Origin: Pseudomonadota bacterium
GTDB taxonomy: Bacteria > Myxococcota > JACRCW01 > JAFGSX01
Length of the DNA: 64,000 nucleotides
NCBI GenBank assembly: GCA_043821645.1
Contig: JBDRCO010000072.1
Coordinates: forward strand, 79,962-143,961
Direction of reading: 5' to 3'
Part shown: positions 6,019 to 40,039 of the stretch, piece by piece
Layout: each line of letters starts with the position of its first letter
Numbering within the stretch: the stretch's first letter is position 1
Made by a program: the position numbers and the translations under genes
Notes under the pieces: model-generated
Databases searched by the model: none
Seen by the model: only the letters and a program-made list of their open reading frames with translations
What the model was told of the DNA's origin: nothing

Positions 6019-7148
6019 CAGCGCCCCCGGGACCGCGGACCCTTGCGCGGGGCGGGTGCCGGCGTGGCCGGTGCGTCGAGCTGTTGCAGGGCGGCCTGAT
6101 CGCCCTGGGCCGTGAGCACCTCGCGCAACAGACTCCGGGCCCCGGCGTGATCCGCACGCCGCTCCAGGGCCTGTTCGAGCAGGCTCCGCGCCTGACCCAG
6201 ATCCTTCTTGCCGACGGCGATGCGCGCCAGCTCGACGTAGCCATCGGCGAAGCTCGGGTCCTCGGTCACGCTTGCGCGCAGGATTCGCTCGCTCTCCTCG
6301 ACGGAGCGGCCACCCACGCGGCGCAGCGACGCCGCCAGGGCCAGACGTGCCCGCTGATGGTCTGGTGCGCGCCGCAGCACGTCCCGGTAGCAGGCAATGG
6401 CGCCGGTCAGATCGTCCTTCTTCGCCAGCAACAGTCCCTTGTGAAAACGTGCACGCACCTTGGCGGGATCGAGATCCAGAGCGCGATCGTAACTATCCAG
6501 CGCCTTCTTGGGCAGCCCGTTGCCCGCGTAGGCATCCCCCAGGTGCGTGAACAGATCGGGGTTACCGCTACCATACGCCAGGGCGTCGGTGAGGGAGGTG
6601 ACCGCGTCGTTGTACAGACCGGCGCGGAGCTGCGCATAGCCCAGGTCACCCATGAGGTCCGCGTCTTCGGGACGCGTGCGCCGGGCAGCCTTCAGGTGCG
6701 TGACGGCGGACTCCACCTCGCCCACCATCAGCTCGGTGAGGCCCAGCTCGTGGAGCAAGGGCCCGTCGCCGGGAACCGCGGCGATGCCCCGCCGGTAGAC
6801 CTCGAGAGCCTTGGCTGGCTGCTCTGCCAGATCGTAGGACATGCCGAGCACCAGGTAGGCTTTGGCCAGCTTCGGATCCAGGGCCAGAGCCTGGTCCAGG
6901 TGCTGGATGGTGAGGTCGGACTTGTCGAGCTGGGCGTAGGAGATGCCGAGGCCAAGATGCGCTCGCGCTTGCTGCTCGGGGGGCACACCCTTGAGCTTGA
7001 GGACGCGCTGCAGCACAGGGATGGCCTTGCTGGCCGCGCCGCTCTCGGCGTAGGTTGTGCCTGCGCGCAGCAGCTCCTCGGCAGTGAGCGCCCGGACCGT
7101 GTTCGGCAACAAGCACAGGACAGCCGCGATCAGGAGGACAGGTCGCAT
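6018..7148 (-). CDS. TPR-repeat protein with signal peptide
   Basis: Track ORF 6018..7574; real start taken at MRPVLLIAAVLCLLPNTVRA (ATG at 7148); multiple 34-aa TPR-like units (AYLVLGMSYDLAEQPAKALEVYRRGIA etc.). Upstream 142 codons of the track ORF are Arg/Ser-rich junk. Confidence 0.6.
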   Translation of the reverse strand: MRPVLLIAAVLCLLPNTVRALTAEELLRAGTTYAESGAASKAIPVLQRVLKLKGVPPEQQARAHLGLGISYAQLDKSDLTIQHLDQALALDPKLAKAYLVLGMSYDLAEQPAKALEVYRRGIAAVPGDGPLLHELGLTELMVGEVESAVTHLKAARRTRPEDADLMGDLGYAQLRAGLYNDAVTSLTDALAYGSGNPDLFTHLGDAYAGNGLPKKALDSYDRALDLDPAKVRARFHKGLLLAKKDDLTGAIACYRDVLRRAPDHQRARLALAASLRRVGGRSVEESERILRASVTEDPSFADGYVELARIAVGKKDLGQARSLLEQALERRADHAGARSLLREVLTAQGDQAALQQLDAPATPAPAPRKGPRSRGR

Positions 7149-7182
7149 GCGCCCTCTATACCGCACTTGGGCACGGTGGGCG

Positions 7183-7803
7183 ATGCACGGTGTGTGGGCC
7201 TTGCTGCTGATGTCACTGCCGACCCGGAGCGCCGCCCATAACCTGGCCAGCATCGACGCGCGGCTGGAGCTGCGAGGGGCTCGTGCCGACCTCCTGATGC
7301 GCCTGGACCTGCGCGATCTGCGACATCTGGTCGAGGTGGATGCGGACGCCGATGGTCGTCTGACCCCTGCCGAGGTACTGGCCACCCGCGACGCCGTCGC
7401 CGAGCTCCTGGCCCAGTCCCTGCGCCTGGTGGCCGAGCCAGACACCACGTCCTGTCCGGTGCACCTGGCCGGCTTCAAGCTCGCCGATTTCTCCACCGTC
7501 GACGTGCACCTGCGCTTCTCGTGCAGCCATGCGATCGGCGGCGCGACCCTGCACAGTGGCCTGTTCGGGGGCACCGGCCATCGCTACCAGCTGCACCTCG
7601 TGGTGACGCGCGGCGACTGGTCCGAGACGCTGCAACTGGATGACGCCCACAACCGCGCCGTGCTGTCGGCGCCGCCTGCTGCGCACGCAGTGGCGTGGTG
7701 GCTTGGGCTCTGCTCCCTGGCCGTGGCGGTGGCGGCTGGACTGTTGCTGTGGGTACGCAGGGATCGCAAGGCAAACGGCCCGCCTGCCTCCCCGCGGGGC
7801 TGA
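7183..7803 (+). CDS. Hypothetical membrane-anchored protein
   Basis: Start at MHGVWALLLMSLPTRSAAH (signal-like), C-terminal hydrophobic helix WWLGLCSLAVAVAAGLLLWV followed by RRDRK; no recognisable domain. Confidence 0.4.
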   Translation: MHGVWALLLMSLPTRSAAHNLASIDARLELRGARADLLMRLDLRDLRHLVEVDADADGRLTPAEVLATRDAVAELLAQSLRLVAEPDTTSCPVHLAGFKLADFSTVDVHLRFSCSHAIGGATLHSGLFGGTGHRYQLHLVVTRGDWSETLQLDDAHNRAVLSAPPAAHAVAWWLGLCSLAVAVAAGLLLWVRRDRKANGPPASPRG

Positions 7804-7813
7804 CCTTCAGGGA

Positions 7814-8461
7814 TCAGGGGGCCGCGACCGGGCTCTCCGTCGACGGGCCTGGGGCTGCGACCGGCATCTCGAGCATCTCGACCATTTCCAGGGCGTCCTC
7901 TTCCATCTCGAGGACCAAGCCATCGACGCGACTCAACACGTAGCGATAGGCCACCAGCGCCGGGATCGCCACGATGAGGCCGTAGGCCGTGGTGAGCAGA
8001 GCCTCCCAGATGCCGGAGGCGAGATCGGCGGGGTTGCCGACGCCTTGCTTGGTGACGTCCTGGAACACGCGGATCATGCCGGTGACCGTTCCCAGCAGGC
8101 CCAGCAGTGGCGCGATCGCGGCGACGATGCCGATGACGCCGACGAAGCGCTCCAGGTTCGCCGCCTCGTGGCGTCCAACCTCCTGCACCGCCTCCTTGAT
8201 CTCGGCGCGCACGCGACCCCGGCGCTTGAGACCCGCCGCCAGCACCGCCGCCACCGAGGAGCTGTGATTCTGGCACAGGACGAGGGCATCACCGGTCTTG
8301 CCGCTGCCCACCAGGTCGTGGATCTTGCGCACGAAGCTCGCAGGCACCACGCGCCCGCGCTGCAGGCTCCACAGCCGCTCGAGGAGGACCGCCAGGGCGA
8401 TCACCGAGCAGGCCGCGATGATGTACATGAGCACGCCACCGCGCTGGAAGAGGTCGAGCAT
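7814..8461 (-). CDS. MotA/TolQ/ExbB-family proton channel protein
   Basis: Start taken at MLDLFQRGGVLMYIIAACSVIALAVLLERLW; three TM helices and the GLLGTVTGMIRVF...EALLTTAYGLIVAIPA core typical of ExbB/TolQ. Confidence 0.65.
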   Translation of the reverse strand: MLDLFQRGGVLMYIIAACSVIALAVLLERLWSLQRGRVVPASFVRKIHDLVGSGKTGDALVLCQNHSSSVAAVLAAGLKRRGRVRAEIKEAVQEVGRHEAANLERFVGVIGIVAAIAPLLGLLGTVTGMIRVFQDVTKQGVGNPADLASGIWEALLTTAYGLIVAIPALVAYRYVLSRVDGLVLEMEEDALEMVEMLEMPVAAPGPSTESPVAAP

Positions 8462-8626
8462 GTTGCGCTCCTTGATCCCCGCACAGGTCTGGCCGCGGCT
8501 CCACGCCGCGCTGCGGGGCGAATGTACCCGGTCCACCTGCCCTGTGCCAGCGGGCTCTGATTTTCCCGCCGGAGTCCGCCGTGGCTGGCGGCCCTGAGAA
8601 CAGCGCAGCAATGGCCTGACACCGAT

Positions 8627-9154
8627 CTACCTGTCGGGCGTTGTATCCAGGGCTCCGCCGATGGCCCGGGCAAGGTCCTCGTAGGCCTGCACGCCCTCGC
8701 GATCCCACACCACCCTCCGCGCAGCGTCGACAACGATCACGCGCGGGACACGCACGACCGGCCCCAGAGGGGAGCTGCCGGCGGCAAGACCGGGGCCGGC
8801 GCGCAGTACCGGAAAGGGGGATCCGAGCGCGTCGGCAAAGATGCGCACCACGCGCCCGTTGTCCGGGTCCATGGCCACCAGCACGATCTGCAGTCCTCGG
8901 CCTGCGAATTGCTCGTCGAGTGCCCGCAACTTGTTCTGGTCGGCCAGGCAGGCATCACAGCCCGTGGTGAGGAGGTACAGCACCAGCACACGCCCTGGCA
9001 GCTGCGCCGCGCTCGTCTCCCTGCCCTCCAGGGTCCACAGGCTCAGCTCCGCCACACGCGGCCCGCGGCTCGTGGTGGCGCACGCACTTGCCAGGAGGAA
9101 CAGCACGACCAGCGCCTGCGCCATGCAGGACATGAGGCGAGGCCACGCCTGCAT
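8627..9154 (-). CDS. Thioredoxin-like (TlpA/redoxin-type) thiol-disulfide oxidoreductase
   Basis: Signal-like N-terminus, CxxC motif (TTGCDACLA), thioredoxin-fold-like spacing; start codon chosen at MQAW, uncertain by a few codons. Confidence 0.5.
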   Translation of the reverse strand: MQAWPRLMSCMAQALVVLFLLASACATTSRGPRVAELSLWTLEGRETSAAQLPGRVLVLYLLTTGCDACLADQNKLRALDEQFAGRGLQIVLVAMDPDNGRVVRIFADALGSPFPVLRAGPGLAAGSSPLGPVVRVPRVIVVDAARRVVWDREGVQAYEDLARAIGGALDTTPDR

Positions 9155-9183
9155 CCTGCCTGGCCGCACGACCACCCCCGTCG

Positions 9184-9768
9184 TCAGTAGTAGACCGTGT
9201 AGCCCGCCAGCACCGAGACCGCCGGGAAGTAAATGGAGCCAATGGTAAAGAAGAACTCACCGGCCAGCTCCACGCTCAGGGACATCTCCTCGTGGAAGTA
9301 CCACTCGAGACCTCCAGCTCCCCGCGCCGCCAGGAACATGGCCTGCCCCCCGAGGGCCGGGTTGCCCTGCAATCCCGTCACCGTGTACAGGAACCACAGA
9401 TAGTGCAGATCGGCTTCGACGTAGGGGCGAATGTCCTCGTCGAGGAAGTTGTAGCGAATGCCGGAGATGGCGCTGAGGCTGGTCAGCATCTGCGGCTCGT
9501 CCGGGGTCGTATCGTGGATGGGCAGCGAGAAGCCGAGCATCAGGCGATAGGTCACCCAGAAATTGTATCCGATGGAGTTGGAGCCGCCCACGCCGAGCAG
9601 CACCGCGTCACTGGATCCGATGTCGTTGACCCCGAACAGCTCCAGGGTCAGGTAGCCCACCTGGGGCAGGAAGATCCCATTGTTGCGGAACTGTGCCCGC
9701 GCGGCGGTGGGCGCCAGCAGCGCCACCACCAGGACCAGCGCACCCCATCCTGCTCGACTCCCACTCAT
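9184..9768 (-). CDS. Putative outer-membrane beta-barrel protein
   Basis: Signal peptide MSGSRAGWGALVLVVALLAPTAARAQ; alternating aromatic/hydrophobic beta-strand pattern and C-terminal ...AGYTVYY ending in aromatic residue. Confidence 0.45.
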   Translation of the reverse strand: MSGSRAGWGALVLVVALLAPTAARAQFRNNGIFLPQVGYLTLELFGVNDIGSSDAVLLGVGGSNSIGYNFWVTYRLMLGFSLPIHDTTPDEPQMLTSLSAISGIRYNFLDEDIRPYVEADLHYLWFLYTVTGLQGNPALGGQAMFLAARGAGGLEWYFHEEMSLSVELAGEFFFTIGSIYFPAVSVLAGYTVYY

Positions 9769-9915: not shown

Positions 9916-11295
9916 ATGACGACGAGAAAAACGCAACACCCGGCCGTCTCCCGTAGCTTACCTCGACGTCGATCGCGGTTGCGGGGCACTGCCGTCCTCG
10001 CCCTGGTCGCGCTGACCGCATGCCCCGAACTTCCGGACGTGTTGCCGCTCCTCGATGGTGGCGCGGTAGAGGCTGGCGCCGGTGATGGGCGCATCGCCGA
10101 CCGGACGGGGGCAGATTTCGGCCACTTTGACGCAGCCGGCAACGACGCCTCCTGCGGCCCGAACACGCCGCTGTACGGAGATCCCTGCGGCGACTGTGGG
10201 ATGTACCTGTGCGATCTGACCGGCGCCCTGGTGTGCATCGATCCCGGGCGCAATGCCTGCAACGTCTGCGGCGAGCTCGACGAGAGTGCCGGCCGCCTCG
10301 GTCATCCCTGTGGCAGCTGTGGCCAGGTGCAATGCACCGCGGATGGCCTGGCGACCCACTGCGTGGGCGAACACACCCCCAACGCCTGTGGCGGCTGTGA
10401 GCCCATCAACCCCGTCGACGCCGGCTCCCCTGACGCGCACCTCAAAGGACCGCCGGGCGCGAGCTGCTCGTCGTGTGGCAGCGGGACCTGGCGCTGCACG
10501 GCGGACCTCAACGACCTGGCCTGCCACCGTGGTCGGGGTCTCACGGCCTGCGGCAGCTGTGAACGCTGCGTGCTCTACCACGCCACCATGGACCAGCGCT
10601 TCGGCGGCGCCTACCTCAAGGCGGGAACGCTGGCCCTGGTCGAGGACACCGGCACCGATGTCGACGTCGGCAGCAGCGAGGTGGCGGGTACCAGCCGCTC
10701 CCTGGTCTTCGATCCCCTCATCGCAGGACCGGGCGCCAGCGGACTGGCCCTGGCGTACGTTATGCTGTCCCCGACGGCCGATCCTGACGACTTCAACGCC
10801 ATGCTGATGTTCCCCGAATTCTCGGCTAGCGGCGACGGGATCCAGTCCGACGACCTGCGGCGCTACATCGTGTACAGCTGGATGTCCCTCGACGAGTACC
10901 GCTACGTGCTCATCTACGACTACTTTTTAGAGACCCTGATCTCGGTGGGAGAGCTGGTGCCCGGGCCACCCCTCGCTGCCGGTGTCGACGGAGGCCTGGA
11001 AGACGCGACCCTGACCGATGGCGCGAGGCAGGACGGCCCCATCGCGGAGGGCGGTGCTGGTACCGACGCCGGCGCGGGAGACGCGGCCCATTCCGACGGC
11101 ACTCTCGTCGACACCCGCGTCCCCGACGGCGCAATCTCCGACGGCGGACACGACACGTCACCCGACAGCAGCGCGGCTCTTGACGGCGGGCTTCCCGATC
11201 AGAACGCCGTCGACACGACGGTCGAGGATGTGAACACGACGGACGCCCGGACCGAAGACCTGGTGCTCGAGGACGTCCCCACCGACGCCAACTGA
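9916..11295 (+). CDS. Cys-rich lipoprotein with acidic Asp/Gly/Thr-rich C-terminal tail
   Basis: Lipobox-like LALVALTAC; about 24 Cys in CGxC/CxxC arrangements within first 230 aa; no enzymatic motif seen. Confidence 0.5.
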   Translation: MTTRKTQHPAVSRSLPRRRSRLRGTAVLALVALTACPELPDVLPLLDGGAVEAGAGDGRIADRTGADFGHFDAAGNDASCGPNTPLYGDPCGDCGMYLCDLTGALVCIDPGRNACNVCGELDESAGRLGHPCGSCGQVQCTADGLATHCVGEHTPNACGGCEPINPVDAGSPDAHLKGPPGASCSSCGSGTWRCTADLNDLACHRGRGLTACGSCERCVLYHATMDQRFGGAYLKAGTLALVEDTGTDVDVGSSEVAGTSRSLVFDPLIAGPGASGLALAYVMLSPTADPDDFNAMLMFPEFSASGDGIQSDDLRRYIVYSWMSLDEYRYVLIYDYFLETLISVGELVPGPPLAAGVDGGLEDATLTDGARQDGPIAEGGAGTDAGAGDAAHSDGTLVDTRVPDGAISDGGHDTSPDSSAALDGGLPDQNAVDTTVEDVNTTDARTEDLVLEDVPTDAN

Positions 11296-11372: not shown

Positions 11373-11945
11373 TTAGCGGGAACAACGCGGATACAGCGAA
11401 CTCTCCTGCAGCGCCTGGGTACAGACCTCCAGAGTGTGAGGCGCAAGTGCATCCAGCTGCAAACGCAGCGCCTGCTCGCACGAGGACTGGCCCAGGCAGA
11501 GCCGACCACCGTCAGCCACGGGCCCGCAGGTCCTGTCAACCAGGATGTCGCAGGTGTTGACGGCGTGGCAGTCGGGGTAACGCGCCGTGTCCTGCAGCGC
11601 GTTCCCGCAGCGCTCCAGGCCGTCCTCGAATTCCGTCATCAGCGTCACCGCGGCGCAGGCCGGAGAATCCTGGCAGGCGTGATCCGCGCCGCAGACCCGG
11701 CTCATGAGGTCCGCGCAGGCTCCGCTGGTCAACCGGCCCAGGTAGTCCGTGCAGCGTGCTGGCCAGTCCAGGGTGTCGACCACACCAGCGTCGAGGGCGG
11801 CACCAAGGTACTGATCCCAGCACTCCTGGGCCGACAGATTGTCAGCACTCAGATCGGTGGGCGCCCTGTCCTCTGCAGAACACTGCATGGCCGTCGAGCT
11901 GACCACGGCAAAACAGACAAGGAACACCGGCTTCAAGGTCGACAT
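11373..11945 (-). CDS. Cys-rich secreted protein (tandem paralog A)
   Basis: Track ORF 11373..12308; start taken at MSTLKPVFLVCFAVVSSTAMQC; repeated C...YPxC motifs (ARYPDCHAVN, SLYPRCSR). Upstream 121 codons overlap the neighbouring paralog out of frame. Confidence 0.45.
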   Translation of the reverse strand: MSTLKPVFLVCFAVVSSTAMQCSAEDRAPTDLSADNLSAQECWDQYLGAALDAGVVDTLDWPARCTDYLGRLTSGACADLMSRVCGADHACQDSPACAAVTLMTEFEDGLERCGNALQDTARYPDCHAVNTCDILVDRTCGPVADGGRLCLGQSSCEQALRLQLDALAPHTLEVCTQALQESSLYPRCSR

Positions 11946-12460
11946 GGGGGATACAGCGCCTTCTCGTTGAGGGCCGACACACACCGCTCCTGGCGCTCGA
12001 ACTCCTGCGCGCCAGTCTGCACATCGGACATGCCAGCGTCGGCCAGTGTGACGAGGGCGCCGACCAGGAGGTTGGCGTTGATGCAGGCGGGCGTCGCGTG
12101 GCAGGTGCGCGTACCCGTGGCAGGGTCCGGGCTCCCGCACACCACCTGCACGAGCTCCGCGCAGGAGTCCCCATCGAGCACCACACCCCCCAGGTCGCGG
12201 CACACGGGATAGCGCGAGACATCCTGCAAAGCCTGCTGACAGCGCTCGCCGCTGCGGTCTTGCTGCACCAGATAGCGCGCAGCCTCGCACGACAGCTCGT
12301 GTTCGCATTGCATGGCCGGACCACAGGTCGTGCTCAGGAGCACGGCACAGGCTTCCTCGGCCGGCACCAGACCCGCATCATCACCCAGGTTCTCCGGCAG
12401 CACGCAGGCCCCGAAGATGAGGCCGCCATAGACACCGAGCAGCAGGACCACGGTCTTCAT
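11933..12460 (-). CDS. Cys-rich lipoprotein (tandem paralog B)
   Basis: Start at MKTVVLLLGVYGGLIFGACV (lipobox); same C...YPxC motif set (SRYPVCRDLGG, ALYPPCRP) as 11373..11945. Confidence 0.45.
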   Translation of the reverse strand: MKTVVLLLGVYGGLIFGACVLPENLGDDAGLVPAEEACAVLLSTTCGPAMQCEHELSCEAARYLVQQDRSGERCQQALQDVSRYPVCRDLGGVVLDGDSCAELVQVVCGSPDPATGTRTCHATPACINANLLVGALVTLADAGMSDVQTGAQEFERQERCVSALNEKALYPPCRP

Positions 12461-12526
12461 GAGTGTGTAGTATACTCCATATCGGTCGCCACACACCGTG
12501 CGACCCCTGATTGCTGGTGCTGTCTG

Positions 12527-27844: not shown

Positions 27845-27923
27845 TTGCGACGAATTTTGCCCAGGTGCTAGCATGCGGTAGTCTGGTGTTCACACCTCGA
27901 GGTGCCGTGCGGGGACGGCACCA
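27845..27923 (+). promoter_or_regulatory. Candidate sigma-70-type promoter and 5-prime UTR hairpin upstream of first MshEN gene
   Basis: TTGCGA (27845-27850), 18-bp spacer, TAGCAT (27869-27874); then perfect inverted repeat ggtgccgt-gcgggg-acggcacc (27901-27922) 16 nt before the ATG at 27939. Confidence 0.25.
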
Positions 27924-27938
27924 GGTATAGGTTTGTCG

Positions 27939-28712
27939 ATGGATCGACGCATCCGGTTGGGCGAATTACTGCTGCGTGCGGGGCTGATCACCGAGATGCA
28001 GCTCAAGGCCGCCCTCGCGGAGCAGAAGAAGTGGGGAGGACGGCTGGGCACTATCCTCGTCAACATGAATTTCATCTCAGAGGATATCCTGGTCAAGGGC
28101 CTGGCACGCTTGCTCGAAGTGCCCCGGGCGGACTTCGAGAACATGAACGTGCCCGACGTGGTCCTGCAGCGCTTCGACCCCACCGACTGCCAGACCCGTG
28201 GCTACCTCCCGGTGCAGTACAGCCACGCAGAGAAGAAGCTCACCGTGGCATTCGTCGACGTCAACGATCTCGCCCTCGTCGACGAGCTGCGGTTCAAGCA
28301 CGGCCTCAACATTCAGCCCGCCATCACCGGCGAGCACGCCCTGCAGGCCTCGTTGCGCAGTCTTTTTTACAGCGAGGCGCTGGACGCGAGTGTCACCGGC
28401 CAGGAGCCTGGGCTCAAGCTCATCGACAGTCGCGGCGGGACCCTGGTCAAGAACCGCGCGGAGATCTTTGGCAACGAGCCTCCGCCGGCGCCGGTGGCCA
28501 CCACGGGGGTTGAGCGTGCACCCGCCGGTGTGGCCGCGGCCCTGCCGCCCCCCCCGGTGGGCGGGATCCCCGCAGGACTGCTCAACGAGCTCGAGATCGC
28601 GCAGCGGCGCCAGTCCAGAGCCATCAAGACCGTCCTGGAGCTCCTGATCGAGAAGGGAGTGATCTCTCGCGAGGAGTTCGTCGCCAGCGTCAACAAGCGC
28701 AGCGACAGTTAG
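27939..28712 (+). CDS. MshEN (T2SS GspE N-terminal) domain protein, predicted c-di-GMP receptor
   Basis: N-terminal RLGELLLRAGLITEMQLKAALAEQ fits the 24-residue MshEN motif RLGxx(L/I)(L/I)xxG(L/I)(L/I)xxxxLxxxLxxQ; followed by GGRLGTILV...ISEDILVKGLARLL second motif and remainder of a GspE_N fold; Pro/Ala-rich linker and short C-terminal helix. Confidence 0.65.
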   Translation: MDRRIRLGELLLRAGLITEMQLKAALAEQKKWGGRLGTILVNMNFISEDILVKGLARLLEVPRADFENMNVPDVVLQRFDPTDCQTRGYLPVQYSHAEKKLTVAFVDVNDLALVDELRFKHGLNIQPAITGEHALQASLRSLFYSEALDASVTGQEPGLKLIDSRGGTLVKNRAEIFGNEPPPAPVATTGVERAPAGVAAALPPPPVGGIPAGLLNELEIAQRRQSRAIKTVLELLIEKGVISREEFVASVNKRSDS

Positions 28713-28767
28713 GAGACTCAAACGGGCCGCTCGTCGATGACACGGCGGTGCGCACCCGGAGCGACTC

Positions 28768-31700
28768 ATGGCGCAGCGGAAACGTCTCGGCGACTACCTC
28801 ATCGAGGCTGGCATCATCGACCAGTTCCAGCTGCAGTCTGCGCTGGGGCATCAGAGGCAGTGGGGTGGCAAGCTCGGCCGGATCCTGGTCGAGAATCGCT
28901 TCGTCAAGGAAGACGTGATGGTGCGCGCGCTGTCCGAGCTGCTCCGCATCGATGCCGTCGAACTCTCCTTGATGACCATCCACGCCCGGGTCATCGAGCT
29001 GGTGCCCGTGGACATGGCCGAGCGCTTCGGGCTGATCCCGGTGGCACTCAAGCGCGAGAAAGCAGGCGAGTTCGTCTACATCGCCATGAGCGATCCCACC
29101 AATCTCGAGGCCGTCGACGCCATCCAGTTCAAGACCGGCAAGAAGGTCAGGTCGATGATCGCGGGGGACAGCGCGATCGATCGCGCCATCCGCCACTACT
29201 ATTACGGAGAGACCCCCCGCGAGACAGCCAGCACACCGGCCGGACAGGTCCAGTTCTCGGGCCGCGAGATCGCGCTGTCGCCTACCCATACGCCGCCTAC
29301 CCAGGCAGCGGTGCAGGCCCCTGCGGCGGCGGGCCACCCGGCGCTCGTGGTCCCTCCTCCGGCGACCTCGCAAGGTGCCATGCCGACGCCCCCTGTTCAT
29401 CCTTTCGCGGGGCAGCCCCAGCCAGCGCTCGCTCTCCCGGACGACGACGACGACATTCCTCTGATCACGGGCACTCCGGCGGGACCAGCGACGGCAGATG
29501 ACTGGTTCTTGCCTGGTGCACCCGCTCCGGCACAGGCACTCGCAACGGCTGTTTCAGCCCCACCTGTACCTGCGACGCCCGCAGTTCCCCCAGCGCTTCC
29601 CGTCGGGCCGGCCCCGCAGCAGCAGGCACCGGTGATCCTGGATGCGCGAGAATTGACGGCCGTGAATCCGCCCGAGGCGCCATTGCCGAACGCAGCGAGC
29701 GTGCTCTCTCCTTCTCAGGTGCCTCCCCCGACGCCAGTGTCGGCCTCCTCGAGTCTTTTTGGCCCGGCCGGGGGCCTCCTGGGGGGTGAGGATGCTGGAC
29801 CGGGTTTGTCGGCGCCGCGGCAGGATGTGGCATTCGGAACGCTGGAACTCCCGACACCGGGTGCTGGGACGGCTGCGACGAGACCGCCGGCGGCGAGGAC
29901 TCCGCCTGTGCAACCCGCAACCGCAGGTCCGGCCCCTGCAGGTCTGGGGCACGTCGAACCGCCGGACGCTGCCGGCACTCCAGCGGTCCTGGACAGCAAT
30001 CTTCTGCAACCCATCAAGGAACCTGCAGTCGCCAACGCTGTGCTGGGTGAGATGGAGTTTGCTGCCCCTGAAAGCCCGCCGAGCGCATCCACCGCACCGG
30101 GGCTGGAGCCTGGTGTGATCCCGGATCGATTCCCGGCGTCAGCGCCACTTCCGGAGCATCTTCTCGCCGCCTCGGGAATGGCATCCTTCGATCTGGGGCC
30201 CGGTGACGACGATCCGCTCGAATTGGACCTCCCGGGCACACCTGTCGCCACGCCGGGGCCTGCCACCTCCACCTTGACGGTGGCTCCGAACTATGAGGTT
30301 GACCTCGGACCCGAGTCCGCTGCGATTCCCCTCGACGAGGCGACATCTCCGGCCCCGCACTCCAGATCCCCTGTGTCCGACGACGGCAGTGCTGCGGCCA
30401 TGCCCGGGGCGGTCCTCGCCGCGTCGGGACTGGCAGACTTCGAACTCGACGAGGATGGCAGCAGCATCGAGCTCGACTTCGACACCCCGACCCCAGACGA
30501 CGCGCAGTCCGCGACCCCCGCGGATCCTCTGGCGAGCATGCTTCCTGTACAGCACGCGAGCGATGAGCCCCTCGAGAGCCGCACCGAGCCCGAGAGCCCT
30601 GGGGTTGACGACAGCCTGAGTTTCGTCCCCCTCGCTCCTCCCCAGCGTGTCTCCGCCGCGGCCGCCCAAGCTGCGACCATCACCCCGAGTATACCGGTGC
30701 AGGAGAACTCCTCGGCCGCCGAGACAGAGGCAGCGGTCACGGCGGACCCTGTCGACGTGCCGCCCCCGAGCGGCAGGGACCCGTCCGGGTTGGAGCTGGT
30801 CCCTCCGGTGTCCACGGCCTTCTCCTTCGAAGACCTGGATCGGCCCCCCGCCGACGCGGTTCCCCTCGGCACCGGCCCCGACCTCGAGGTGGTTCAAGCC
30901 GAGGAGATTAAGCGGCTGGACGCTCCGAGCCACAGTCCTCAGCTGGAGACGATCCCAGCCCAGGCTGACGATTCACCGGACGCCTCTCTGCGGGAGAAGA
31001 CAGAGACCCCAGCGGCGGTCGAAGATCCGCCCCTGCCAGACCTCCCGATGGAGGTCTTCAGCGATGTCGTCGACGTGGACGCACCGCCAGTGCTGGTCAC
31101 CCCTGCACGTCTGGCGGATCCCGCGGTCGAGACCCCAGCCCCGCCGCTGCCAGAGCGCACAACCGCTCCGGAGGTGGAAGGAGCACAGGCACCTCGACGC
31201 CCGCTGCCGCCAGACCCTGTGGCGGAGGCCTCGCTGGTCGCACTCGAGGACGGAGCCAGCGACGATCTCAGCGACCTCGACTTCTCGCTCGACATCGAGG
31301 ACCCACCTCCACCCCTGGCTGCGCGTGTGCCGAAAGAGCTGCAGGCCACCGAGGAACCCGCGGTACACGAAGGGGCCGCGTCCTCCGAGCAAGCACCTCC
31401 ACTCGAACTCAGCCCCACCACCCCGGCACTCATGACCGGGGGCAGCCCGGATATCGAACCGGGACAGGGCGTGAGCGACGATCTTTTGATCCCCGAAGTG
31501 CCTGCGCAGGACCTGGCCGAGGACACCGAGGACAGCACCGTCACCGATGGTGACGAACACGCGACGATGCACGATCCCGCGTCTGATACCCAGGCACCCC
31601 AGGAGCAAAGCCCGATGTCCGGCCTGGAGCGCACGATCGAAGACGCAGCGCCACAGGACACGGAACCAGCCAGCCCAGGCGTCTCCGCTCCACCCAGCGC

Positions 31701-33006
31701 ACTCACTCCCGTCGACACCCAGACCATGGATCTGGCCCAGGGGGCCTTTGACCCGTCGAACTGGAGTCTGGATGCCTTCCCCGAATCGCTCCCAGCAGCA
31801 TCGGTGGCAGCCCCTGCACCGATCGAGGACAAATTCGCCGAGCCTGCCGGCGCGATGCCGGGCCCGGAGGATCAGGACTTCGAATCCATCGTCGACTTCT
31901 CGGAGTCAGACTTTCCGAGCGAGGCCCAGAGTCAGGACGCCGTGCTGGGAGAGGAGGATGAGGACGTCGATTCCATCATCGATTTCAAGGAATCGGACTC
32001 CCCGCGCGAGGTCCAGGGTCCGGAGACCGCGCCGGGACCGGAAGCGGACGAGTTCGTGTCCATCCTTGACTTCTCGGAGTCGGACTCCCCGCGCGAGGCC
32101 CAGAGTCCGGAGCCCAGTGCTCCCGTCGCTGACGCTCCAGCCTCCGATGGTCCGATGCCGGCGACGATCGGCCGCGTGGAAGGTGAACCGAACGCGGCTT
32201 CCGTCTCCGATGATGAAGAAGCCTCGGACCTGGACCTGGGCGAGGATCTGCCAAACTCCGAGCCCATCTCGCTGCTACCTCCACCACCCAACTTCTCCTC
32301 GGCCTCCGCCCTGCTCTCCGCACTGGACCAGGGAGAGGATCTCCCCGACCTCGAGCAGCCAGACGCCTGGATAGATGCACCGGCGGCACCGATCGCGCGG
32401 GACCCGTCCGAGGCCTCCCTGGCCCGGTTCCACGACGACGCCGACCCGAGCGATGCGCTCGACCTCCCATTTGACGCGGAGCAGGCACCCTCGCCCGCTC
32501 CCAGTGCCACGACAGTCCTGGATGAGCCGCCATCCTCCAGCCACCCGATCGAGGATCTGAGCTCGGCCCTCGACGTGGCTTTCCCGGACCTCACCCTCGA
32601 TCCCCCGACGGAAGACAGCGTGCCACCGTCTCTCCCGGCAGCTGGGAGTCGGCTGCCAGAGGTCGCCCTGGACGCGCTCGGGGATGACATCGACGCGGTC
32701 GCGACGGAATTTCAGCTCGACCCACCGGCGAGCGAGCCCGCGATGACCCTGTCTGGATCTGACGTCGCGGTGCTACCCGAACTCCAGCTCGAGGGCCCGG
32801 AGCTGGCAGACGAATCCTTGACGGCCTCAGCGTCAGGGCCAGCCACCGAGAAGACGACGACACATCCGGTCCTGGCACCCGATGTGGAGGCTCTGCTCGA
32901 CAATATCGATGCCGCCAAGATGCCCGCGGTCCTCAAGCTGCTGCTGGAAAAGGGTCTGCTCTCCCTCGAGGACATCGAGGCGACCCTGGGCAAGAAGAAG
33001 GACTGA
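28768..33006 (+). CDS. Giant MshEN-domain protein with about 1200-aa acidic Pro/Ala/Glu/Asp-rich low-complexity region
   Basis: N-terminal RLGDYLIEAGIIDQFQLQSALGHQ (MshEN motif) and full GspE_N-like domain (about 155 aa); then continuous low-complexity P/A/E/D/S-rich sequence to near the C-terminus, ending in a conserved-looking helix MPAVLKLLLEKGLLSLEDIEATLGKKKD. Confidence 0.65.
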   Translation: MAQRKRLGDYLIEAGIIDQFQLQSALGHQRQWGGKLGRILVENRFVKEDVMVRALSELLRIDAVELSLMTIHARVIELVPVDMAERFGLIPVALKREKAGEFVYIAMSDPTNLEAVDAIQFKTGKKVRSMIAGDSAIDRAIRHYYYGETPRETASTPAGQVQFSGREIALSPTHTPPTQAAVQAPAAAGHPALVVPPPATSQGAMPTPPVHPFAGQPQPALALPDDDDDIPLITGTPAGPATADDWFLPGAPAPAQALATAVSAPPVPATPAVPPALPVGPAPQQQAPVILDARELTAVNPPEAPLPNAASVLSPSQVPPPTPVSASSSLFGPAGGLLGGEDAGPGLSAPRQDVAFGTLELPTPGAGTAATRPPAARTPPVQPATAGPAPAGLGHVEPPDAAGTPAVLDSNLLQPIKEPAVANAVLGEMEFAAPESPPSASTAPGLEPGVIPDRFPASAPLPEHLLAASGMASFDLGPGDDDPLELDLPGTPVATPGPATSTLTVAPNYEVDLGPESAAIPLDEATSPAPHSRSPVSDDGSAAAMPGAVLAASGLADFELDEDGSSIELDFDTPTPDDAQSATPADPLASMLPVQHASDEPLESRTEPESPGVDDSLSFVPLAPPQRVSAAAAQAATITPSIPVQENSSAAETEAAVTADPVDVPPPSGRDPSGLELVPPVSTAFSFEDLDRPPADAVPLGTGPDLEVVQAEEIKRLDAPSHSPQLETIPAQADDSPDASLREKTETPAAVEDPPLPDLPMEVFSDVVDVDAPPVLVTPARLADPAVETPAPPLPERTTAPEVEGAQAPRRPLPPDPVAEASLVALEDGASDDLSDLDFSLDIEDPPPPLAARVPKELQATEEPAVHEGAASSEQAPPLELSPTTPALMTGGSPDIEPGQGVSDDLLIPEVPAQDLAEDTEDSTVTDGDEHATMHDPASDTQAPQEQSPMSGLERTIEDAAPQDTEPASPGVSAPPSALTPVDTQTMDLAQGAFDPSNWSLDAFPESLPAASVAAPAPIEDKFAEPAGAMPGPEDQDFESIVDFSESDFPSEAQSQDAVLGEEDEDVDSIIDFKESDSPREVQGPETAPGPEADEFVSILDFSESDSPREAQSPEPSAPVADAPASDGPMPATIGRVEGEPNAASVSDDEEASDLDLGEDLPNSEPISLLPPPPNFSSASALLSALDQGEDLPDLEQPDAWIDAPAAPIARDPSEASLARFHDDADPSDALDLPFDAEQAPSPAPSATTVLDEPPSSSHPIEDLSSALDVAFPDLTLDPPTEDSVPPSLPAAGSRLPEVALDALGDDIDAVATEFQLDPPASEPAMTLSGSDVAVLPELQLEGPELADESLTASASGPATEKTTTHPVLAPDVEALLDNIDAAKMPAVLKLLLEKGLLSLEDIEATLGKKKD
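31876..32115 (+). repeat. Three tandem about 75-bp coding repeats inside the giant gene
   Basis: Peptide units ESIVDFSESDFPSEAQSQD / DSIIDFKESDSPREVQGPE / VSILDFSESDSPREAQSPE; DNA units share ...gacttctcggagtc(a/g)gact(tt/cc)cc...gaggcccagagtc.... Confidence 0.5.
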
Positions 33007-37723: not shown

Positions 37724-37969
37724 GTCCCGTCCGTCGCGAACACCTCGACGCGGTACATGGATGCGAAACCCGGGCCATCGGGATCAGGTCCGAAGGCGCA
37801 GAAGATCCGGGCAGATCGAGAGGTGATCCGGATTTCGCCCATGATAAATGCGGCCGATTTCATCCAGAGTGGCTGATATGCTCCAGCAGCCTGGTGGATC
37901 CGAACCTCCCGCTCCTGCCCCGACAAGCGCGGATCAGGTGCGGCGCGGCTCTGCCGGGCGGAACATGGC

Positions 37970-40039
37970 TTGCTTCGCACGGAGGCGATGACGGATCGCA
38001 TGCCAACCCTGTCCTGCATCCCACGCAGCCGCGGCCTCGCCCGCGCCGCAACCCGTGTCGGGCTGGTGCTGGCCTGCGCGGTGTTCGGGGCGCCCGCCGT
38101 GGCGCAGGAGGCCGATCTGTTCGGGCTCGGCGAGGACGAGGGCGACGACGTGGCCAGTGTCCCCATGGTCATCGGTTTGCGCCCCGCCAGCGCCACCGTG
38201 CTCACCGGCGAGGATCTGCTGCGCCAGGGCTACCGCACCCTGGGCGATGCCCTGGCCGATGTGGTGGGCATCGACCTGCAGCGCACCACCCAGGAAAGGC
38301 GCTACGGCCTGCGCGGTATCCCCGACGGCATCCTGCTGGTCATCGACGGAGTGCCGACCCTGGTCGATGGCGAGCGCGACGTGCTCGACGTGGACGAGGG
38401 CCTGGATCTCAACGATGTGGAGCGGGTCGAGGTGATCCGCGGCCCGTCCTCGGCGGTCCACGGCGTGGCCTCGCTCTCCGGTGTGGTGCAGGTGACCACG
38501 CGTCGCCCCGGGCTGACCAGTGCACGGCTCCGCCTGGGCACCACCCACCTGGGCGAGCGCGAGGTCAGCGCCGACGGCACGGTGCGCTATGACGTGGCCG
38601 CCCTGCGCGCGTCGGTGCTCCACCGCGAAGGGCCCAATGGTGTGTGGCGCCTGGAGAACGTCCCCACACGCTTCATCCGGGTGGGGCGCGCGGTGGTTCC
38701 CTCGACCAAGGAGAACACCGAGATCATTCCCCAGGACGACAGCACCACCCACCTCCGGCTGACCGGCAGCATTGGAGCACTGCAGCTCGACGGGCGTTTC
38801 AGCCGCAGCGACGTGCACACTCCCATCTCCAGCTTCAGCCATGGCCTGCTGTCGACGGGCCCCCAGCAGCGGCAGCTGCGCGAACGCCAGCGCATGCAGC
38901 TGAGCTGGAACCGCCACCTGGGCCCACTGTTCGTCGAGACCTCCGCCTACGGCGCGCGCAACCTGCGCACGGACCTGATCGTGCTGTACCCGTCCCGCGG
39001 GCTGTTTCCGACGGGGGGCAGTGTCACCGTCGACAGTGAGGCCGACACTGCGGGCCTGTTGCTCACCGCGGGCGTGCCTGTGCTGCGCGACCACCGGCTG
39101 CTGCTGACCTGCTTCGGCGACCTGACCCGACAGTGGGCCGTGACCCGCGCGGTGGACCCCGAAGAGGAACGCGTGTACCCGCGACTGGTCGAGTTCGACG
39201 AGCTCACCGGCACGGCCACCGCAGCCTTCGAGTACCAGGGTGACTTCGGAGCGGGCTGGCATCTGACGGCGGGCGCCGCGGTGGAGTGGCGCACCGGCTA
39301 TGGCGCAGCCCTGGTGCCCCGGGCTTCCCTGAGCTACCTGCCGCTGTCCTGGCTCGCCCTGCGCGCATCGTACGCCGAGGGCTCGCGCACCCCGGACCGC
39401 TACGACCTGGCCTTGCTCACCCAGGCCGTGATCGCTGGCCGCGCCATCGGCGCCGGTGTCAATCCCGACCTGCAGCCCGAGCACGCGCGCAGCCTCGAGC
39501 TGGCGTTGCGTCTGGAGCCGTCGGCTCAGCTTCACGCCGAGCTTGACCTGTTTGCCTCACGCCACGAGAACGCCATCGAGCCAGAGATCGTGGGTGCGCG
39601 CATGGTGCCGCAGAACCTGCCTCCCCGGCTGGTCCTCGGCGGCGAGCTGTCGACGGAGATCGAGGCCATCCCGACCCTGCTGCACCTGGGTGCGGGTGTG
39701 GCTCTGGCACGGACCGTCGATGGACCCGCGCTGGAAAACCGCTTGCTGCTGGTGACCGCCACGGCCGAGGTGACACCCCTGACCGGTATCGCGCTGGGTG
39801 CGCGCGGCCGCGCCGGCTGGCGAGAGCAGAGCGATGCCGCATCGGGAACCTCGGGGAACGCCGAGATCTTTGGCTCGTACCGCGCCCTCGACGAGCGGCT
39901 GAGCTTCTCGCTGGTGCTGCGCAACGCCATCGATGGGCAGGACGATTCCCCGGACGTCGCCGTGCTCACCGGGACCTCTGACGTGGCCATCCCCAGCCGC
40001 GGCCGCGTGCTGTTCGTCGCCATCGAGGGCCGCCTGTGA
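37970..40039 (+). CDS. TonB-dependent outer-membrane receptor
   Basis: Signal peptide (VGLVLACAVFGAPAVAQ), plug-domain motifs (VIGLRPASATVLTGEDL, ERVEVIRGPSSAVHGVASLSGVVQVTT), long beta-barrel. Start may be 37988 or 38000. Confidence 0.65.
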   Translation: MLRTEAMTDRMPTLSCIPRSRGLARAATRVGLVLACAVFGAPAVAQEADLFGLGEDEGDDVASVPMVIGLRPASATVLTGEDLLRQGYRTLGDALADVVGIDLQRTTQERRYGLRGIPDGILLVIDGVPTLVDGERDVLDVDEGLDLNDVERVEVIRGPSSAVHGVASLSGVVQVTTRRPGLTSARLRLGTTHLGEREVSADGTVRYDVAALRASVLHREGPNGVWRLENVPTRFIRVGRAVVPSTKENTEIIPQDDSTTHLRLTGSIGALQLDGRFSRSDVHTPISSFSHGLLSTGPQQRQLRERQRMQLSWNRHLGPLFVETSAYGARNLRTDLIVLYPSRGLFPTGGSVTVDSEADTAGLLLTAGVPVLRDHRLLLTCFGDLTRQWAVTRAVDPEEERVYPRLVEFDELTGTATAAFEYQGDFGAGWHLTAGAAVEWRTGYGAALVPRASLSYLPLSWLALRASYAEGSRTPDRYDLALLTQAVIAGRAIGAGVNPDLQPEHARSLELALRLEPSAQLHAELDLFASRHENAIEPEIVGARMVPQNLPPRLVLGGELSTEIEAIPTLLHLGAGVALARTVDGPALENRLLLVTATAEVTPLTGIALGARGRAGWREQSDAASGTSGNAEIFGSYRALDERLSFSLVLRNAIDGQDDSPDVAVLTGTSDVAIPSRGRVLFVAIEGRL

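Follow-up and report, generated by a model that had tools for sequence, protein, structure and literature searches.

Where would a proton-channel subunit find its partner once the partner gene is no longer at its side? In the 5:2 proton motors (MotAB, ExbBD, TolQR and AglRQS), both subunits are thought to be needed and their genes are almost always adjacent. The wheel-and-axle architecture of these motors is reviewed in PMC9389320, in which exbB–exbD synteny is described as near-universal and ExbB without ExbD is left as an open question. In the window, by which we mean the whole 64-kb stretch analysed here, taken from a 161-kb contig of a fragmented metagenome-assembled genome, we found an exbB/tolQ-like gene with no exbD beside it (Table 1). 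Because exbB and exbD are almost never apart in this family, their separation throughout a clade is unusual and might signal a changed mechanism. An orphan clade in which the wheel gene has stayed intact and been selected for a long time without its neighbour is well suited to asking whether wheels can be shared across the axles of other systems and whether an ExbB-type protein can act alone.

Table 1. The orphan exbB gene and the features around it (positions within the window)
Feature	Position	Strand	Description
Convergent gene, ~218 aa from the likely ATG	7147..7803	+	Secreted; EF-hand-like loop; C-terminal TM anchor
exbB/tolQ-like gene, 215 aa	7814..8461	-	MotA/TolQ/ExbB proton-channel (stator 'wheel') subunit; no adjoining exbD
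Spacer, 165 bp	8462..8626	-	From the redoxin stop to the exbB start
TlpA/ResA-like thiol:disulfide oxidoreductase (redoxin) lipoprotein	8627..9154	-	Pfam Redoxin; C-D-A-C; LLASAC
OMP194, 194-aa 8-stranded outer-membrane beta-barrel	9184..9768	-	First gene of the same-strand cluster

The start codon of exbB is the ATG at 8461, with AAGGAG upstream at a 6-nt spacing; it lies inside the longer open reading frame as listed (7814..8611, minus strand, with a TTG at 8611), in a window whose G+C content is ~69%. In a Pfam scan, PF01618 matched the protein over profile positions 5–126 of 127 with a score of 111.8 bits (E = 2.3e-32), far beyond chance against the curated cut-off of 22.9 bits. The protein has three hydrophobic segments (residues ~9–30, 106–131 and 151–172), and its AF2 model (pLDDT 79.7) is all-helical with long helices at residues 85–139 and 144–198. 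Compared by Foldseek over its full length, the model gave TM-scores of 0.66–0.70 with E. coli TolQ chains and 0.60–0.64 with ExbB chains, and much weaker matches with the flagellar MotA/PomA chains. The top PDB sequence matches were likewise E. coli ExbB (51 bits) and TolQ (49 bits). The predicted layout is that of the ExbB/TolQ fold, with three transmembrane helices and a helical domain between TM1 and TM2. Thus, profile, sequence and fold searches all agree with the preliminary description, which had recognized a complete ExbB/TolQ-like protein here and had named a failure of the profile searches as one result that would count against it.

The likeness to the named E. coli proteins nevertheless has limits. 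The window ExbB has PF01618, the fold and the pore residues in common with TolQ and ExbB, but only ~22–27% identity, and neither tolR, tolA, tolB and pal nor exbD and tonB stand alongside the gene. In NCBIfam, it reached neither the TolQ equivalog (TIGR02796; 90.3 bits, cut-off 221) nor the ExbB equivalog (TIGR02797; 64.1 bits, cut-off 206.2). The gene product is an ExbB/TolQ-type protein and the equivalog of neither. PADLOC models for Zorya (ZorA) and other MotA-like proteins of defence systems matched neither exbB nor four neighbouring genes at E ≤ 0.01.

How complete is the absence of a partner? Six-frame searches of the 64-kb window, covering ORFs of at least 30 aa, found no ExbD/TolR with a four-sequence HMM and phmmer, and no ExbD with a 79-sequence HMM; neither HMM gave anything at E < 1, while the ExbD/TolR models detected their positive controls in control loci at 1e-18 to 1e-55. 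Pfam scans of the ~45 window ORFs revealed no ExbD, TonB, MotB/OmpA or second MotA_ExbB domain, and no tolR, tolA, tolB, pal, exbD or tonB was found in the 64 kb. The sole related item in the window is a TonB-dependent receptor (37877–40039, plus strand), ~30 kb from exbB. On its two sides, exbB is separated from its neighbours by 165 bp and 10 bp; in the related locus L004, the corresponding gaps are 72 bp and 12 bp. Because the exbB stop codon lies 10 bp from that of the convergent gene, no room is left downstream for exbD or a remnant of it. The initial claim that neither side carries an ExbD/TolR or TonB partner therefore stands on a closer look at the flanks and can be extended to the whole window. 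The spacer upstream of exbB contained no usable small ORF in three frames, no minus-strand terminator-like or sigma-70-like site and no Rfam match, and promoter/terminator and Rfam scans of the exbB region gave nothing useful.

The same arrangement recurs in relatives. We recovered ten independent orphan exbB loci that fall into two related clades, with the reading frame intact at 53–100% identity. Clade A (67–100% identity) comprises the window, L002, L004, L096 and L097, clade B (53–61% identity) comprises L005, L089, L092, L094 and L095, and neither has an ExbD within 6–10 kb. Because every readable locus of both clades is without ExbD over that distance, the lone exbB is a conserved lineage trait and not an accident of assembly. 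In contrast, exbD lies directly downstream on the same strand in 78 of the 79 testable GTDB outgroup loci (38–54% identity), the set consisting of 80 species-representative loci, one of which (L024) lies on a contig that ends too early. The alignment-based scan that produced this set was swamped by generic TM2/TM3 patterns, and it returned only the 38–54% relatives and missed the close clade; the set was still used as the baseline for exbD adjacency. A metagenome scan with a back-translated motif specific to clade A yielded a single 3.3-kb locus. The only testable outgroup locus without ExbD within 10 kb (1/79) was L036, a Bacterium UASB270 scaffold with exbB at 10001–10591, and for this reason it looks like an independent second orphan exbB.

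The nearest sequence relatives of the window ExbB are exbB–exbD pairs that have no adjoining TonB, with 38–59% identity over the full length. They have the same length, the same three-TM layout and the same motifs in TM2 (GLLGTVxGM) and TM3 (EALxTTAxGLxVAIPA), and what sets them apart from the window gene and the two orphan clades is the exbD that follows directly. This was also the case in all three of the closer paired relatives, P0042, P0054 (a Nannocystaceae MAG) and P0032. Given that the outgroup and the closer relatives are paired, the orphan gene probably descends from an ordinary exbB–exbD pair. A neighbour-joining tree placed clade A, clade B and the paired P0054 clade together, with a branching order that is undecided and carries no support values, and from this grouping we deduce that exbD was lost once or twice. 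The gene belongs to a known family, and it is the atypical, lineage-conserved gene arrangement that differs; it is not a new system.

Does the orphan protein retain what an axle would require of it? In the ExbB/TolQ families, a set of T/E/T/P residues lines the pore around the ExbD/TolR aspartate. Residues T125, E153, T158 and P167 of the window ExbB align with T148, E176, T181 and P190 of E. coli ExbB, for which the PDB sequence was used, and with T145, E173, T178 and P187 of TolQ. The residue numbering of a second pore alignment with the E. coli sequences agrees with that of the PDB-based one. T125, T158 and P167 show no variation across the two orphan clades and the 81 paired relatives, and E153 is kept in 100% and 96% of the two orphan clades and in 84% of the paired relatives. 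No pore position differed between the orphans and their nearest paired relatives. Pairwise dN/dS values were 0.15–0.30 for clade A and, over all comparisons, mostly under 0.5, and these are, if anything, overestimates, because dS is probably compressed by the strong GC3 bias. Judged from these substitution rates, the orphan exbB is under purifying selection, and the evidence indicates that its product is still doing ExbB-type work.

We therefore favour, at slightly better than even odds (a probability of roughly 0.55), a working pentameric stator subunit whose ExbD/TolR-type dimer is encoded in trans. The orphan ExbB would be the inner-membrane pentameric 'wheel' of a proton-driven 5:2 motor, and its gene would derive from an ordinary exbB–exbD pair whose exbD member disappeared in one or more ancestors of the lineage. 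Because the channel-lining residues and the protein as a whole stay under selection, the wheel most likely still assembles around an ExbD/TolR-type dimer encoded elsewhere, probably in another operon of the Ton, Tol or Agl type. Proton flow through the motor would then drive some process in the envelope. The preliminary description had left the choice between a partner encoded elsewhere and a different role for the protein; the invariant pore residues and the purifying selection favour the former.

Which axle might this be? The ExbD subfamily that is paired with the nearest relatives was not found on the orphan-carrying contigs, including one of 6.98 Mb, among the best 120 matches (at least 141 bits). 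This hints, suggestively at most, that the ExbD of this subfamily has disappeared and has not simply been relocated. On the same grounds, any partner would have to come from a different ExbD/TolR subfamily, and cross-system pairing would then be required. Passages of PMC13367063 cite two precedents, namely that H. pylori TonB1 works with an unlinked ExbB3/ExbD3 pair and that E. coli TolQR and ExbBD cross-complement in part. However, the H. pylori pull-downs reported in PMC13367063 revealed a high specificity between ExbB and ExbD, which weighs against pairing across systems.

Two further systems invite comparison. AglR, from the AglRQS gliding motor of Myxococcus xanthus, belongs to the same MotA/TolQ/ExbB family and likewise comes from a Myxococcota-type high-GC genome (PMC3169522). 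In that operon, however, two genes of the ExbD/TolR type, aglQ and aglS, come after aglR (PMC3169522), whereas there is no ExbD/TolR-type gene near the window exbB. The earlier suggestion of a link to gliding motors is unsupported, since the nearest relatives are plain exbB–exbD pairs and not an aglRQS-type operon. The other comparison is with annotated members of the ExbB family that come from Gram-positive bacteria in which ExbD is lacking and that are noted as unexplained in PMC9389320. These resemble the window gene in being ExbB-type subunits with no cognate ExbD adjoining, but they come from monoderm organisms that may lack ExbD genome-wide, whereas the window organism is diderm-like, with genes for an outer-membrane barrel and a TonB-dependent receptor.

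Could the orphan wheel instead have acquired a new partner? ExbB might work without an ExbD-type axle, together with the small barrel, perhaps joined by the redoxin or the convergent protein, as a new trans-envelope module; we regard this as unlikely. The case begins with the gene order. The barrel gene, the redoxin gene and exbB lie head to tail on the same strand, with the barrel gene 9–29 bp upstream of the redoxin gene, depending on which redoxin start is used (alternatives are a GTG at 9175 and an ATG at 9133). The preliminary description was right to place the redoxin gene on the same strand as exbB but not to call it the only such neighbour, because it had passed over the barrel gene. 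OMP194 has a signal peptide and a C-terminal ...YTVYY, and its AF2 model (pLDDT 79.6) has eight strands, with Foldseek matches to OmpW, the OmpA TM domain, NspA and OmpX. Wherever a clade-A locus is long enough (window, L004, L002 and L097), the OMP194 gene was found upstream of exbB and in the same orientation, even as the gene between the two changes. The OMP194 family has only 11 detected members in a database of 5.8 billion proteins, several of which lie on contigs that match those of the clade-A exbB genes in length. Among the neighbours, only the barrel gene keeps its link with exbB across the whole of the closest clade; under the favoured reading, too, it may be co-expressed with exbB, and this linkage is the only lead to a non-canonical role for the orphan ExbB. 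The apparent absence of the subfamily's ExbD from the orphan contigs, described above for the best 120 matches, would also fit a new partnership.

The convergent gene offers a second association. It adjoins exbB in three clade-A loci, with homologues flanking exbB in L004 (9419–10075, minus strand, 39% identity) and L096 (1170–1976, plus strand). In the predicted protein, a signal peptide is combined with an EF-hand-like loop, which reads DADADGRLTPAE in the window and DRDRDGRMSPDE in L004, and with a TM anchor at the C-terminus that has a basic tail after it; no Pfam, NCBIfam or PADLOC model matched the protein. Antisense within this gene, at 7391–7445 on the minus strand, the Rfam model SECIS_2 scored 30 bits against a gathering threshold of 70 (E = 0.006), probably by chance.

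Several observations count against a new partnership. First, no neighbour has an acidic residue in a TM helix that could replace the ExbD/TolR aspartate, and the pore Thr/Glu/Pro motif that is known to surround this aspartate is unchanged. Second, the neighbours in clade B are wholly different, with no barrel homologue among them. Third, clade A spans a divergence of only about family level, so that its shared gene order may be inherited and not selected. Fourth, an ExbB-type motor coupled to an 8-stranded barrel corresponds to no known mechanism. ExbB wheels running without an ExbD axle, with the small barrel or another unrelated partner, would constitute a new proton-driven trans-envelope module, or, in a milder version, a specialised alternative wheel set on another system's ExbD/TolR dimer; both are long shots. 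For the present, what we have is an oddity of gene order in an uncultured bacterium that provides no evidence for a new mechanism.

The redoxin itself does not hold its place. The sequence carries the Pfam Redoxin domain (38.5 bits, cut-off 26.6) and AhpC-TSA (31.8 bits), a C-D-A-C motif and a lipobox-like export signal, LLASAC, and this combination of domain, CxxC and export signal makes it a TlpA/ResA-like protein; with the specific NCBIfam ResA/TlpA models, it scored far under the cut-offs (24.7 against 170 and 24.1 against 230). A homologue with 45% identity occupies the same position in L004, but a guanylate-cyclase/TPR gene takes its place in L002 and L096, and L097 retains only a remnant of the latter gene. 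Because this slot between the barrel gene and exbB varies among close relatives, we ruled out the redoxin as a functional partner and consider it an incidental neighbour, contrary to the tie with a thioredoxin-like gene that had been implied at the outset. L097 has a 53-aa ORF in this slot, which was considered as a possible mini-partner but proved to be the C-terminal remnant of the cyclase/TPR gene. Around its active site, the redoxin reads T-G-C-D-A-C in the window and T-S-C-D-V-C in L004, compared with the usual W-C-x-x-C. In L093, a redoxin lipoprotein (31% identical, W-C-L-P-C) is encoded 3 kb upstream of a paired exbBD, a weak hint of old synteny.

Alternatively, the orphan gene could be the leftover of a broken exbBD operon, either functionless or redundant with ExbB/TolQ paralogues and drifting towards loss. 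Such a fate would accord with the disappearance of the cognate exbD and with the several Ton/Tol/Agl sets that Myxococcota-like genomes usually carry; M. xanthus, for example, has tolQRA-tolB-pal as well as aglRQS (PMC3169522). A decaying gene, however, would hardly have kept its frame intact in ten independent loci of two clades, its pore and TM2/TM3 motifs invariant or nearly so and a good ribosome-binding site before its start, with the low dN/dS values given above in spite of the GC3-compressed dS. We consider this explanation quite improbable. That an adjoining exbD was missed through misassembly, a frameshift or extreme divergence is barely credible: the source is a metagenome-assembled genome and one outgroup locus (L029) does carry a frameshifted exbD, but the six-frame searches with two HMMs gave nothing, the exbB stop lies 10 bp from a conserved convergent gene, the independently assembled Logan contig L001 has the same arrangement, and nine further orphan loci come from different samples.

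The case also points to a widespread exbB–exbD subfamily, which lies beside msbA-lpxK-kdsB in Gammaproteobacteria and beside divIC in Myxococcota-like genomes. The gammaproteobacterial relatives have a conserved comEC-exbB-exbD-msbA-lpxK-kdsB cluster that places ExbBD beside lipid A/LPS genes with no TonB. It was found in L065 (7470–14821), L067 (8050–12077), L041 (11100–14081) and ~40–50 other GTDB loci, and we take it to be the PA2983/PA2982 type of Pseudomonas aeruginosa. Our search of the literature on orphan ExbB/TolQ/MotA, PA2983/PA2982 and exbBD-lpxK-msbA found no functional study. In the paired Myxococcota-like relatives (P0042, P0054 and P0032; L006, L008 and L093), exbB–exbD is followed by divIC and a GAF-GGDEF gene. 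In four clade-B loci (L005, 8920–12764; L092, 11057–14172; L094, 8487–9908; L095, 7074–10606), exbB is followed by a gene for a MepM-like peptidase (Csd3_N2 + M23) that is anchored in the membrane; three of the four loci also have a GH3 glycosidase gene after exbB. These neighbourhoods hint that the exbB subfamily may be tied to the cell wall or cell division. An FGE-sulfatase that seemed to be a synteny common to paired and orphan loci was set aside, because the proteins are only 25% identical and are thus generic paralogues.

Beyond the cluster, the window resembles L004 over a longer distance. Upstream of the barrel gene, a 459-aa Cys-rich secreted protein (9916–11295, plus strand) and two tandem paralogous Cys-rich lipoproteins of ~175–187 aa (~11373–11900 and 11933–12496, both minus strand), all with no Pfam match, are syntenic with L004, as are an LpoB-like gene, an FGE-sulfatase, a dCache histidine kinase and a response regulator at 12.5–17.3 kb of the window. 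Farther along, two adjoining ORFs (27882–28712 and 28741–33006, both plus strand) each start with MshEN; in the second, which stays open for ~1,420 aa, this domain is the only Pfam match.
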